This document shows positions 50,259-60,464 of a DNA stretch of 64,000 nucleotides, piece by piece (position 1 is the first letter of the stretch; each line of letters starts with the position of its first letter). The DNA is from Candidatus Moraniibacteriota bacterium (GTDB taxonomy: Bacteria > Patescibacteriota > Minisyncoccia > Moranbacterales > UBA1568): positions 321,222-385,221 of the forward strand of contig CP064994.1 in NCBI GenBank assembly GCA_016699975.1. The letters are read 5' to 3'. A program made the translations under genes and the position numbers. Under the pieces are notes generated by a model that saw only the letters and a program-made list of their open reading frames with translations, was not told the DNA's origin and did not search any database.

Positions 50259-50261
50259 AGA

Positions 50262-51285
50262 CTGGTGAGTTCAAGAATTTAATGCCCCTTTTCCAGTACC
50301 CTGGCAAAAACTTCATTCGGCGTCAAATAGTTAAGCGCTTTCCTCGGTCGATTGTTGAGTTTGTCCTGAACTGACCGAACTTCTTTTGGGAAATTTTATC
50401 AAACGGGCATTTCTTCGGAAAATACTCTCGTAACAATCCATTCAAGTTTTCCACACCTCCTTTCTGCCAACTTTTGTAGGTATCGCAGAAGTAGGAAGGA
50501 AGAGAAAGTTTTTGTTTCGTTTCTCCGTGCAAAACATTCTCCGTTCCATTATCTCTCGTAATACTTCTCCTCAATTGCTGCGGAAGCCGAGAGAAATGTC
50601 CCTGTATCGCTCGTTCGCTTTCGACCGCTGTTTTGTTTGGAACTTTCTTTAATCGGCATAGCTTCATTTTTCGCTCGTACTGTACCGAGAGTACTGACTT
50701 CTGTTTTGAGAATATCACGGAATCGGTTTCCCAGTCTCCAAAGTGTGTACGCTTGGTAATGACCGCGGGTCTTTCGTGAATGGGTATTCTATCCGGAATC
50801 GTCTCTTTTCGCGGTTTTCGAGAGAACTTTGGTCGTCTCCGCTTCTGTTTTCGTCGCAGATGTTTGTACCATCCGCCGACCCTTCCTTCTCCGCGGTAAA
50901 TGTAATCATAGATGGATTCGTAACTTATCGAGGTATCCGTACACGAGGAAAGATTTTTCGGAGGAGATGTTTTCAACCGGCCGGCTATCTGCTCCGGTGA
51001 ATGTCCCTTCAGGAGTTCGCTTTCGACAAACTTTTTCAGTTTCTCGTTTTGCCATTTTTCCAGTTTTCTTTTGTTGGTATTTTTCTTTCGTCTTTCCGCA
51101 TACGCTTCAGCTCGGATGGCAACATAGGAAGGTGCGGACTCGAATTTCTTCGTATCTCTCGCTTGATGACGGAGTAATCTCTTCCAAGTTTCTCCGGATC
51201 CATGTTTTCTTTTCTTCATGCGGAGAAAGCTTTCGATTCGCTCTCGTTCAAAGAAGGTTATGGACGTTCCTTTTGGCATATTCAT
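50262..51285 (-). CDS. IS30-family transposase (copy A); C-terminus shifted by a single-base indel
   Basis: MNMPKGTSITFFERERIESF..., ...SPEQIAGRL...HFGDWETDSV...RDNGTEN... Past a T run on + (~50359-50362) the alternative frame encodes the canonical IS30 end ...EVRSVQDKLNNRPRKALNYLTPNEVFARVLEKGH, stopping inside the terminal repeat. Confidence 0.85.
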
Positions 51286-51347
51286 AGCGTTTTTGGAAGT
51301 TAACGCCGGAGTATACCAGAAAAGGGGCTTCGGGGTTTGAATTCACC
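50264..51347 (-). mobile_element. IS30-family insertion sequence, copy A (~1.08 kb) with imperfect terminal inverted repeats and a 3-bp ACT target duplication
   Basis: Ends GGTGAGTTCAAG... (50264) and ...TTGAATTCACC (51347) are inverted. ACT flanks the element at 50261-50263 and 51348-51350. The internal transposase has the DDE IS30 signature. Confidence 0.85.
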
Positions 51348-51451
51348 ACTCTCTCGTCTTTCTTGCATACCCCTTCTTTTTTTGGTACCCTTTTCAGGGA
51401 ATGCGTTTTGTAGCGCGATTATAAGAAATTTTGCGCGGTACCCGAAAGAGA

Positions 51452-51526
51452 GGGCGTGTAGCTCAGATGGTTAGAGCGCGACACTGATAATGTCGAGGTC
51501 CCAAGTTCGATTCTTGGCACGCCCAC
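51452..51526 (+). tRNA. tRNA-Ile (anticodon GAT)
   Basis: Acceptor gggcgtg/cacgccc, anticodon stem cgaca/tgtcg, loop ctGATaa, T-loop ttcgatt; no encoded CCA. Confidence 0.85.
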
Positions 51527-51568
51527 AGTTTGACTTTTTTCATCGTTCATATACTCTAAGAACACTGC

Positions 51569-51642
51569 CGCGGGGTGGAGCAGTCCGGCAGCTCGCCTGG
51601 CTCATAACCAGGAGGTCGCAGGTTCAAATCCTGCCCCCGCAA
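51569..51642 (+). tRNA. initiator tRNA-fMet (anticodon CAT)
   Basis: Acceptor 5' cgcgggg and 3' ccccgca give the C1 x A72 mismatch of bacterial initiators. Acceptor, D and T arms are near-identical to E. coli tRNA-fMet. Loop ctCATaa. Confidence 0.75.
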
Positions 51643-51738
51643 CTAGTACGATAAAGATGAGGTGAGAGAATATGTTCGGATTCTCATGCTCCCCGCCACT
51701 TCGGCGGGGAAGTTTCGTCTCCACAAAAAGAGGTTGCT

Positions 51739-58524: not shown

Positions 58525-58560
58525 CGGGTGCATAAAAGGCTTGCGCTATTTCAACGCAAG
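58525..58560 (-). terminator. candidate rho-independent terminator downstream of the ImmA-like gene
   Basis: On the reverse strand, GGCTTGCG-ttgaaatag-CGCAAGCC (8-bp stem) followed by TTTTA. Confidence 0.4.
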
Positions 58561-58633
58561 CCCTTGTCTAAAGAGGGGATTGGGTGCTACATTTTCCTTG
58601 CAGGGGTTGACGTAGCAATGCGTTGATCTAGCA

Positions 58634-58668
58634 GGAATCCCGCGTTACAGCGCGGGGTTTTTCTATTT
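58634..58668 (+). terminator. rho-independent terminator-like hairpin on the + strand with no annotated upstream + gene
   Basis: CCCGCG-ttacag-CGCGGG followed by GTTTTTCTATTTTT. Confidence 0.4.
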
Positions 58669-58687
58669 TTACGATACATTGAAATGG

Positions 58688-59221
58688 TCAAAGCGTGTCG
58701 AGGGGATTATGAGGACTGTTCATGATTCCGCATTCTTCCAATCGTATTTCCAGTGTTTTCTGAGAAACGCCATAGAATTTTGCGAGATCTCTGGCGTCTC
58801 GTGTTTCTTTATATTTTTTCCTCAAGTGCTCTTCCGGTATGAGGTACATGGCAGTCGCCTTATTGGCGCTTCTCTCAATGAGCCTTCGGACAAGATCTGA
58901 AGGAAGTGTGGATTCAGTTATGATTTTTTCGAGAAGCTTTACAAAAGCGATATCAAGGCTTTGGCAGAAATGAAAGAGCTCATGTATCTTTGTAAAGATT
59001 TGCCGGTTTGCATTCGAACTGGTTTTTACAAAGATGTAGACCCGCTTCATAGATTCGTCGGGAAACCAAAAGCCCTCCAGATAGTGGGGGCTTGGGTCTT
59101 TCCCTTCGGAGTCGAAGGGATTGCAAAAATGGGGAATTAATACGCTGTCCAGTATTTCTTCAAGTGAGCAATACTTAATTTCAAACCCAGACAAAACATG
59201 CTCCATGGGTTTAGTGCCCAT
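58688..59221 (-). CDS. ImmA/IrrE family zinc metallopeptidase (anti-repressor protease of ICE/prophage regulatory modules)
   Basis: HEXXH ...KIHELFHFCQ... and ImmA/IrrE C-terminal region ...EEHLRKKYKETRDARDLAKFYGVSQKTLEIRLEE... Confidence 0.75.
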   Translation of the reverse strand: MGTKPMEHVLSGFEIKYCSLEEILDSVLIPHFCNPFDSEGKDPSPHYLEGFWFPDESMKRVYIFVKTSSNANRQIFTKIHELFHFCQSLDIAFVKLLEKIITESTLPSDLVRRLIERSANKATAMYLIPEEHLRKKYKETRDARDLAKFYGVSQKTLEIRLEECGIMNSPHNPLDTL

Positions 59222-59296
59222 AGGAAATGTGATTTGATAGGGATATTGCCGAAAGATATCATCGATGAGTTTCTGGGAATAGTTTGTGAGTCGATT

Positions 59297-60385
59297 GGTG
59301 AATTCAAACCCCGAAGCCCCTTTTCTGGTATACTCCGGCGTTAACTTCCAAAAACGCTATGAATATGCAATGGAACGTCCATAACCTTCTTCTTTGAACG
59401 AGAGCGAATCGAAAGCTTTCTCCGCATGAAGAAAAAGAAAACATGGATCGCGGAGAAACTTGGAAGAGATTACTCCGTCATCAAGCGAGAGATACGAAGA
59501 AATTCTGAGTCCGCACCTTCCCTATGTTGCCATCCGAGCTGAAGCGTATGCGGAAAGACGAAAGAAAATACCAACAAAAGAAAACTGGAAAAATGGCAAA
59601 ACGAGAAACTGAAAAGTTTGTCGAAAGCGAACTCCTGAAGGGACATTCACCGGAGCAGATAGCCGGCCGGTTGAAAAACATCTCCTCCGAAAAATCTTCC
59701 TCGTGTACGGATACCTCGATAAGTTACGAATCCATCTATGATTACATTTACTGCGGAGAAGGAAGGGTCGGCGGATGGCAAAGATCTGCGACGAAAACAG
59801 AAGCGGAGACGACCAAAGTTCCCTGAAAACCGCGAAAAGAGACGATTCCGGATAGAATACCCATTCACGAAAGACCTGGCGGTCATCTTTACCAAGCGTA
59901 CACACTTTGGAGACTGGGAAACCGATTCCGTGATATTCTCAAACAGAAGTCAGTACTCTCGGTGGTATAGTACGAGCGAAAATGAAGCTATGCCGATTAA
60001 AGAAAGTTCCAAACAAAACAGCGGTCGAAAGCGAACGAGCGATACAGGGACATTTCTCTCGGCTTCCGCAGCAATTGAGGAGAAGTATTACGAGAGATAA
60101 TGGAACGGAGAATGTTTTGCACGGAGAAACGAAACAAAACTTTCTCTTCCTTCCTACTTCTGCGATACCTACAAAAGTTGGCAGAAAGGAGGTGTGGAAA
60201 ACTTGAATGGATTGTTACGAGAGTATTTTCCGGAAGAAATGCCCGTTTGATAAAATTTCCCAAAAGAAGTTCGGTCAGTTCAGGACAAACTCAACAATCG
60301 ACCGAGGAAAGCGCTTAACTATTTGACGCCGAATGAAGTTTTTGCCAGGGTACTGGAAAAGGGGCATTAAATTCTTGAACTCACC
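59297..60385 (+). mobile_element. IS30-family insertion sequence, copy B, inverted relative to copy A, with a 3-bp ATT target duplication; transposase degenerate
   Basis: Ends GGTGAATTCAAACCCC... (59297) and ...TTCTTGAACTCACC (60385) match the copy A termini. ATT is at 59294-59296 and 60386-60388. The internal sequence is colinear with copy A, with substitutions and several indels. Confidence 0.8.
59359..60370 (+). pseudogene. IS30-family transposase (copy B), disrupted by multiple indels and substitutions
   Basis: Start MNMQWNVHNLLL-stop, where copy A has MNMPKGTSITFF. The remaining transposase is scattered over ORFs 59524-59826, 59738-60100, 59982-60206 and 60100-60318. The canonical C-terminus ...RPRKALNYLTPNEVFARVLEKGH is present in a third frame. 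Confidence 0.7.
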
Positions 60386-60464
60386 ATTGAGTAGCACATG
60401 ATATCCTTGTTTTTGTTGGAATTCGAGGACGGCTGATTCAATCTCATTGGGACTTTGAGTGGCA

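Follow-up and report, generated by a model that had tools for sequence, protein, structure and literature searches.

The window analysed here is a 64-kb stretch of CP064994, a circular 1.05-Mb MAG of a wastewater Moranbacterales (Patescibacteria), and it contains two inverted copies of one insertion sequence (IS), which we refer to as copies A and B. Copy A (50264-51347, minus strand) is 1,084 bp long as assembled and is located 5 bp past the stop codon of a ygjP-like gene and 104 bp upstream of a tRNA-Ile gene. Its right terminal inverted repeat (GGTGAGTTCAAG) occupies 50264-50275 on the plus strand and its left one (GGTGAATTCAAA) 51336-51347 on the minus strand, and the copy is flanked by the triplet ACT on either side (50261-50263 and 51348-51350). 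The 320-aa ORF of this copy (50323-51285, minus strand) corresponds to GenBank entry QQS21258.1. Copy B (59297-60385, plus strand) measures 1,089 bp as assembled, is flanked by ATT (59294-59296 and 60386-60388), and lies in the first codons of an ImmA-like Peptidase_M78 gene that belongs to a serine-recombinase integrative element adjoining tRNA-Asp. The coordinates, orientations and triplets of both copies, which had been proposed in a sequence-only reading of this DNA, all proved exact when the sequence was read again, and a repeat search of the 64-kb window reported the inverted A/B pair as its sole repeat.

The interval between the copies begins with a chromosomal segment (51452-53858, plus strand) that aligns collinearly with L033, an IS-free contig, and that contains genes for tRNA-Ile(GAT) (51452-51526) and the initiator tRNA, recognizable by its C1xA72 (51569-51643), an ABC exporter (51739-53523), a second CAT tRNA, tRNA-Met(CAT) (53681-53755), and tRNA-Asp (53782-53858). 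It is followed by genes of the tRNA-Asp-linked integrative element, starting with a large serine recombinase (53829-55347, minus strand) in which a G-run near 55290 contains a +1 frameshift that splits the gene; the tRNAs, the exporter and the integrative-element genes are thus present as first described. At its far end, copy B cuts the Peptidase_M78 (ImmA/IrrE-like) gene into a downstream part (58688-59296, minus strand) and an upstream part (60389-60505, minus strand), and separates this gene from its partner upstream, an XRE-family HTH repressor-like gene (60465-60833, minus strand; PF01381, 42.3 bits). When positions 59297-60388 were deleted in silico, one continuous ORF resulted, with a PF06114 match of 37.9 bits; in contig L029 the start codon of this gene is called only about 9 nt from the insertion point. 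Elsewhere in the window, the overlapping ORF pairs 12111/12757, 14007/14668 and 42802/43728 were considered as possible frameshifts and rejected; their Pfam domains are full-length, and they therefore represent mere upstream ORF extensions.

The canonical form of the element is 1,088 bp long and has a single ORF encoding a 336-aa transposase. This canonical, reconstructed protein matches the IS30-family profile NF033563 with 247.3 bits (cutoff 80) over positions 1-267 of the 267 in the profile, and the ORF of copy A matches it with 220 bits (cutoff 80). At the N-terminus of the canonical protein, PF13936 (HTH_38) is found with 28.6 bits (cutoff 27). A Pfam search with the ORF of copy A as assembled gave no HTH_38 match, owing to the shifted frame of codons ~26-55, and, since Pfam returned no match for the raw ORFs of copies A and B, the family call needed NCBIfam together with the frame-corrected protein. 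The DDE triad of the canonical transposase consists of D189, D246 and E280, with spacings of 56 and 33 residues, in the motifs GDWETD, RDNGTE and GGVENLNG. The 12-nt terminal repeats, GGTGA(A/G)TTCAA(A/G), agree at 11 of 12 positions and are accompanied by a second conserved block (GCCCCTTTTC) at a 1-nt offset; the clean inverted repeat is confined to the outermost 12 nt. Mismatch-free occurrences of the 12-nt terminal repeat GGTGARTTCAAR are limited to the four ends. The profile match, the HTH_38 domain, the DDE spacing, the length, the ends and the 3-bp duplications all fit the earlier assignment of both copies to the IS30 family. The element is an ordinary IS30-family IS, and the finding a routine one. 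By analogy, it may transpose by the IS30 route, through an intermediate with abutted ends that would be a circle or a tandem dimer; the 64-kb window showed no sequence corresponding to an IRR-IRL junction.

A base-by-base alignment showed that copies A and B are not identical as assembled: they share 96.6% identity over 1,100 aligned columns, with 10 substitution and 27 gap columns. Both can be compared with the canonical 1,088-bp element, on whose sequence 9 of 9 independent short-read contigs agree, and whose reconstructed protein is identical to that of an intact copy annotated in the same genome (QQS21378.1). The identity of copy A with the canonical sequence is 99.63%; it shows no substitution, but one nucleotide is deleted at each of four canonical positions, 135 (A5), 153, 222 (C3) and 964 (A5). 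Relative to the intact 336-aa protein, these deletions shift the frame of codons ~26-55 and of the last ~33 codons, as seen in a custom frameshift-aware alignment; tblastn with a homolog blurred the frameshifts. Hence, the transposase of copy A, previously called near-intact, is not so as assembled, its HTH_38 domain and C-terminus both being frame-shifted. For copy B, comparison with the canonical element revealed 16 indel events together with 10 substitution columns; of these columns, nine lie within a few nucleotides of an indel, and the tenth is an isolated C-to-T change. Its start region does read MNMQWNV..., as reported before, where copy A has MNMPKGTSI.... Three of its insertions involve more than one nucleotide (tandem duplications of CTT and GGT, and one complex 4-nt patch); these insertions and the isolated C-to-T resemble replication slippage or mutation more than they resemble the errors of polished Nanopore sequence. 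An A5-to-A4 frameshift at canonical position 964 is common to A and B.

Lesions of this kind extend beyond the two copies. At least eight copies of the element are present in CP064994, which bears on the earlier question of how many exist elsewhere in the genome, and frameshifts are found in at least five further copies. The four in which the site could be located all fail at A5 runs and show no amino-acid change ahead of the frameshift. Across six copies, 8 of the 9 A5 runs have been struck, always from A5 to A4. Short-read contig L027 includes the left junction of copy B and carries the canonical sequence over B's first lesions; however, contigs L019-L028 collapse the repeat, with left and right flanks stemming from different copies, so that none of them can vouch for the internal sequence of any one copy, nor L027 for that of copy B, and L019-L028 provide no duplication pairs. 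Searches of the JGI metagenome_contigs gave 0 matches, both with a pattern that spans B's first lesions in their canonical and B-type forms and with a pattern for the left IS end.

The published coverage of CP064994 is 10.93x Nanopore and 5.38x Illumina, and it was assembled with CANU and polished with Racon, medaka and then Racon with the Illumina reads. One-nucleotide homopolymer deletions also occur in the unique DNA of the window when it is compared with short-read contigs of 99.0-99.9% identity, although some of these could be real strain differences, since these contigs represent different samples and strains. One such deletion, at 62298, splits a GT2 gene; another is located at 60866, and a third, at 53747, affects the acceptor stem of tRNA-Met, for which a canonical cloverleaf is obtained only in L033. 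The change from CCCTA to CCTA is shared by copy A with two of these unique sites. The density of indels is ~0.5/kb in unique DNA, 3.7/kb in copy A and ~15/kb in copy B. Based on the mutation spectrum, the published coverage and the other assemblies, the departures of A and B from the canonical element, and from each other, are very probably residual consensus errors. A gradient of this kind might arise during polishing: short reads of a multicopy repeat would map to the least erroneous draft copy, and one copy would thus be polished to perfection while the remaining ones keep their homopolymer indels. In the cell, copies A and B are probably canonical and intact. Since the lesions are most likely consensus errors, neither the age nor the inactivity of the copies can be deduced from them. 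The previous proposals that copy B is damaged and non-functional, and that its divergence marks it as the older insertion, therefore lose their basis, as 16 indels against one isolated substitution are most likely technical and cannot date insertions.

An alternative is that the lesions are real; copy B would then be an old pseudo-IS in decay, and copy A a younger insertion with partial damage. This alternative would seem to be favoured by the roughly fourfold excess of lesions in B, by the lesion common to A and B, and by the 3-nt tandem duplications and the isolated substitution in B. Furthermore, the repair capacity of many Patescibacteria is reduced, which could favour homopolymer slippage. 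On the other hand, copy A has zero substitutions beside its four indels, and the ratio of indels to isolated substitutions in B, about 16:1, is the reverse of known bacterial pseudogene spectra. In addition, other copies are frame-shifted at the same A5 runs without any prior amino-acid change, and lesions of identical types are present in unique DNA (the tRNA acceptor stem and the GT2 gene), in an assembly with a coverage of just 5x/11x. The flank of copy B, disrupted and presumably neutral, shows 2 SNPs and 0 indels over 387-730 nt relative to L027 and L030, against 16 indels inside the IS. With 9 A5 runs in the element, one shared strike by chance is likely. We therefore consider real decay unlikely; the same low probability applies to its corollaries that both copies were mobilized or left behind while transposase came in trans from one intact master (QQS21378.1), and that the shared frameshift at position 964 reflects a progenitor of A and B that was already defective. 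The fullest form of this alternative, in which IS elements of repair-poor Patescibacteria decay almost purely by A5-to-A4 slippage while a master copy mobilizes them in trans, is very unlikely; if true, it would mean that an unusually indel-biased natural mutation spectrum can be read from one genome.

The insertion history of the two copies follows from the flanking triplets and from empty sites in metagenome contigs of other samples. In the case of copy A, contig L033 contains a single ACT, and its alignment blocks overlap by exactly this triplet, query positions 1702-1704 aligning to both 50261-50263 and 51348-51350; the distance between ygjP and the ABC exporter gene is 394 nt in L033 versus 1,481 nt here. 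In the case of copy B, contigs L029-L032 have one copy of the ATT triplet, and L029-L031 include the Peptidase_M78 gene in its intact, 205-aa form. For both copies, direct reading and these alignments agree on the duplicated bases (3 bp; ACT/ACT for A and ATT/ATT for B). The triplets are genuine target duplications and not chance repeats, because the empty-site contigs carry one triplet each and a related IS, described below, has duplications in all of its copies examined. Each copy having its own 3-bp duplication and its own empty site, A and B inserted independently and do not form a composite transposon, as had been concluded from the triplets.

The same observations bear on the generic possibility, compatible with independent insertion, that part of the population carries the 7.9-kb segment flipped by recombination between the inverted copies. 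About 1.09 kb of inverted homology, probably identical, lies 7.95 kb apart, which would provide a substrate for such an event. However, the matched duplications at both copies show that no net inversion has occurred in the assembled state, and the segment has the same orientation as in the IS-free contigs L033 and L029; the assembled orientation is thus ancestral. Moreover, an inversion would set the tRNA and ABC genes against both the plus-strand direction that prevails among the genes of the window and its positive GC skew, and we think it improbable that part of the population carries it.

A composite transposon, in which A, B and the 7.9 kb between them moved as one unit, is suggested by nothing more than inverted copies of one IS bracketing cargo genes, and is refuted to the point of near certainty by the duplications and empty sites: the outer triplets differ (ACT at 50261-50263 versus ATT at 60386-60388) while each copy has a matched pair, L033 lacks copy A and keeps the tRNA/ABC "cargo" beside ygjP, L029-L032 lack copy B and keep the integrative-element genes in place, and the "cargo" holds chromosomal tRNA genes, the initiator tRNA among them. 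Taken together, two separate insertions of one IS, with their divergence due to consensus error, constitute a likely account of this locus.

This active IS30-family element has at least eight copies in a CPR genome of 1.05 Mb and occupies sites that are polymorphic between wastewater populations. By cutting the ImmA-like gene from its repressor partner, copy B would be expected to blunt the induction of the integrative element. For low-coverage long-read MAGs in general, the locus illustrates that unpolished homopolymer errors in a multicopy IS can mimic pseudogenization and a graded "age", and that IS-copy divergence in such assemblies is unfit for ordering insertions or for calling transposases dead; even QQS21258.1, annotated as a transposase in GenBank, is frame-shifted as assembled.

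The element resembles members of the IS30 family, whose prototype is IS30 of E. coli, in having one transposase ORF, whose product combines an N-terminal HTH with a DDE core of 33-residue spacing between D and E, and in its length of ~1.1 kb (about 1.0-1.25 kb in the family), its short terminal inverted repeats and its very short target duplication. It differs from IS30 itself in its host, a member of the Patescibacteria (CPR), and in its duplication of 3 bp; that of IS30 is 2 bp, and 3 bp are found in other family members. A literature search for IS30 in Patescibacteria yielded nothing relevant, and one for LOOT RNA matched only an author name. A related IS30-family element of 1,102 bp is present in the Candidatus Moraniibacteriota MAG JAXHLG010000002 (loci L008-L013). 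It belongs to the same subgroup, with 54% amino-acid identity over the whole transposase, and its subterminal sequence is similar (…AATTCAAACCCCG… / …AAATTCTTGAA…), although the outermost end bases differ. Perfect 3-bp duplications flank 6/6 of its copies and, unlike the copies described here, these 6/6 are mutually identical, in an assembly that was polished with Polypolish. Finally, the composite transposons Tn10 and Tn5 likewise consist of two inverted copies of one IS around genes; unlike them, the pair described here has no single outer duplication, as each IS has its own and the two sites are separately empty.

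The repeat search found exactly one pair of long repeats within the window, an inverted pair formed by the IS30-family insertion sequences designated copies A and B. Re-reading of the ends placed copy A at 50264-51347 on the minus strand, flanked by the target duplication ACT (50261-63 and 51348-50), and copy B at 59297-60385 on the plus strand, flanked by ATT (59294-96 and 60386-88), in agreement with the coordinates and triplets of the sequence-only reading. The 12-nt end GGTGARTTCAAR has zero-mismatch matches in the window only at the four ends of the two copies. Base-by-base alignment confirmed that the copies are not identical: they share 96.6% identity over 1,100 columns, of which 10 hold substitutions and 27 hold gaps.

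The separate duplications had been taken to mean that the copies inserted independently and are not a composite transposon, and this is borne out by metagenome contigs in which the sites are empty. Firstly, contig L033 (ENA, MEGAHIT) carries gmk, ygjP, the tRNAs and the ABC exporter without the IS at site A; window 48560-50263 corresponds to positions 1-1704 of this contig and window 51348-54039 to positions 1702-4394, and the 3-nt overlap of the two blocks is a single ACT. Secondly, contigs L029-L032 (Logan) contain an XRE gene and, after it, a Peptidase_M78 gene that is intact at 205 aa, and at site B, which lacks the IS, the two alignment blocks share ATT(G), that is, a single ATT. Furthermore, in silico excision of 59297-60388 restores a single ORF with a PF06114 match. 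Thus, the duplication belonging to each copy, the separate empty sites and the ORF restored by excision rule out a composite transposon, and the independent insertion of A and B is proven. A related IS (54% amino-acid identity) is present in another Moraniibacteriota genome as six identical copies, all six with perfect 3-bp duplications. Because the duplications match and the empty-site contigs are collinear, the reference is not inverted, and the 7.9-kb segment between the copies has its ancestral orientation in the assembly; inversion between A and B is conceivable in principle.

The lesions of the two copies were counted against a canonical 1,088-bp element, which is identical in nine independent contigs assembled from short reads of sewage and wastewater projects. 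Copy A is free of substitutions but has four 1-nt deletions: two A5 runs are shortened to A4, a C3 run is shortened to C2, and one G is missing. Three of the four are grouped in codons 26-55, after which the frame is regained, leaving the HTH recognition region scrambled; the fourth, common to copy B, replaces the last 33 residues. The description of copy A as near-intact therefore does not hold for the assembled sequence, in which the HTH region and the last 33 residues are out of frame. Alignment of copy B, whose start region does read MNMQWNV..., to the canonical element shows 16 indel events together with substitutions in 10 columns. Nine of these columns are no more than a few nt away from an indel; the remaining one is an isolated C-to-T change. 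In each of four other copies in the genome the first frameshift falls in an A5 run, and the six copies combined have eight of the nine A5 runs of the element affected, always as A5 to A4. No amino-acid substitution ahead of the frameshift was seen in these six copies. Indels without substitutions are the opposite of natural pseudogene decay, and are typical of Nanopore homopolymer under-calling. The view that copy B is a pseudogene older than A is not upheld, as its differences are dominated by indels; we consider it very likely that the departures of both copies from the canonical element are assembly errors.

Lesions of the same type occur in unique DNA. Comparison with short-read contigs 99.0-99.9% identical to the window revealed CCC to CC at 62298 and 60866, a 2-nt deletion at 60888 and, relative to L033, C4 to C3 at 53747; all four are deletions on the window side, and the context CCCTA to CCTA is found at two of them and also in copy A. 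The change at 53747 affects the 3' strand of the acceptor stem in tRNA-Met(CAT) (53681-53755, plus strand), which has the lowest Rfam score among the five tRNAs of the region. ARAGORN gives a distorted acceptor stem for the window version and a canonical cloverleaf only for that of L033, and the lesion is most likely a consensus error within an essential gene. Indel density is about 0.5 per kb in unique DNA (4 events in 8.6 kb), 3.7 per kb in copy A and about 15 per kb in copy B. The deletion at 62298 splits a GT2 glycosyltransferase gene (61513-62834, plus strand) into ORFs of 268 and 145 aa; in L029 and L032, which are 99.75% identical to the window, the gene is intact at 440 aa.

The source genome is the Candidatus Moraniibacteriota MAG Hirt_18-Q3-R61-65_MAXAC.378, accession CP064994 (Singleton et al. 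2021, Supplementary Data 3, PMC8012365), which is circular, 1,048,819 bp in size and classified as Patescibacteria, Moranbacterales, UBA1568. Its coverage is 5.38x for Illumina and 10.93x for Nanopore, and its pipeline ran from CANU through Racon with Nanopore reads and two rounds of medaka to Racon with Illumina reads (PMC8012365). CP064994 contains at least eight copies of the IS, copy B included. One is intact, encoding a 336-aa transposase (QQS21378.1) identical to the frame-corrected reconstruction. At least five truncated products are present (QQS20531, 20869, 21111, 21318, 21417), the 320-aa ORF of copy A matches GenBank QQS21258.1 exactly, and copy B is without an annotated protein. 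Short reads of some eight copies would have mapped to the draft copy with the fewest errors, which would have been polished to perfection (QQS21378.1), leaving the others unpolished.

Site B is naturally polymorphic: contig L027 carries the IS there, L030 and L032 lack it, and the same two flank SNPs are present in all three. Given this polymorphism, the occupied allele may have had lower coverage, which may explain the heavier error load of copy B. L027 has the exact left junction of copy B, yet is canonical across the first B lesions; this counts against real lesions, albeit suggestively only, since the repeat is collapsed in short-read contigs. The two IS copies, their duplications and their separate insertion events are genuine and unremarkable. 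Among the IS-bearing contigs L019-L028, the 100% identity of the 1,088-bp element in nine contigs, which stem from several sewage and wastewater projects independent of one another, suggests very recent spread, or one widespread Moranbacterales population.

Several observations concern the tRNA-Asp-linked integrative element, whose Peptidase_M78 gene copy B interrupts. Its large serine recombinase gene (53829-55347, minus strand) is split by a frameshift near 55290, with the catalytic-serine N-terminus (MKKAVAYLRVSSREQ) in a 44-aa ORF (55213-55347) and the rest in a different frame. Removing one G of a G4 run yields a 505-aa protein whose Resolvase match covers profile positions 1-143 with 73.8 bits, compared with 63-143 and 27.5 bits before the correction; the frameshift may be a further assembly error or a real inactivation. 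The element's cargo is strain-variable: window 55366-56950 (minus strand) encodes a restriction enzyme resembling EcoO109I (PF14511, 270 bits) and an N6_N4 methyltransferase, whereas the equivalent place in L029 (6799-8369) and L031 (3452-5022) holds a TypeIII_RM_meth/N6_N4_Mtase gene of >621 aa. The common backbone (57056-59297) is only 93% identical between strains. Between window 53889-54039 and L033 4244-4394, there is a sharp fall in identity that begins some 30 nt beyond the end of tRNA-Asp (53858), within the 3'-terminal part of the recombinase gene; it marks the border of strain-variable element DNA and a likely attachment-site region. Near the far side of the element, just downstream of an HTH_17/MerR-like gene (60966-61238), Rfam identified a LOOT RNA (RF03000) at 61255-61385 (plus strand), covering the full model with 74.3 bits (gathering score 46.4); a literature search on this RNA found nothing on its function.

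The raw ORFs of the copies gave no Pfam match. The frame-corrected transposase gives an end-to-end match to NCBIfam NF033563 (IS30 family transposase) with 247 bits (cutoff 80) and a match to Pfam HTH_38 with 28.6 bits; its catalytic residues D189, D246 and E280 are spaced 56 and 33 residues apart. The family assignment of the sequence-only reading is therefore substantiated by the NF033563 match, and the element fits the IS30 family in its size, single ORF, terminal repeats and 3-bp duplication.
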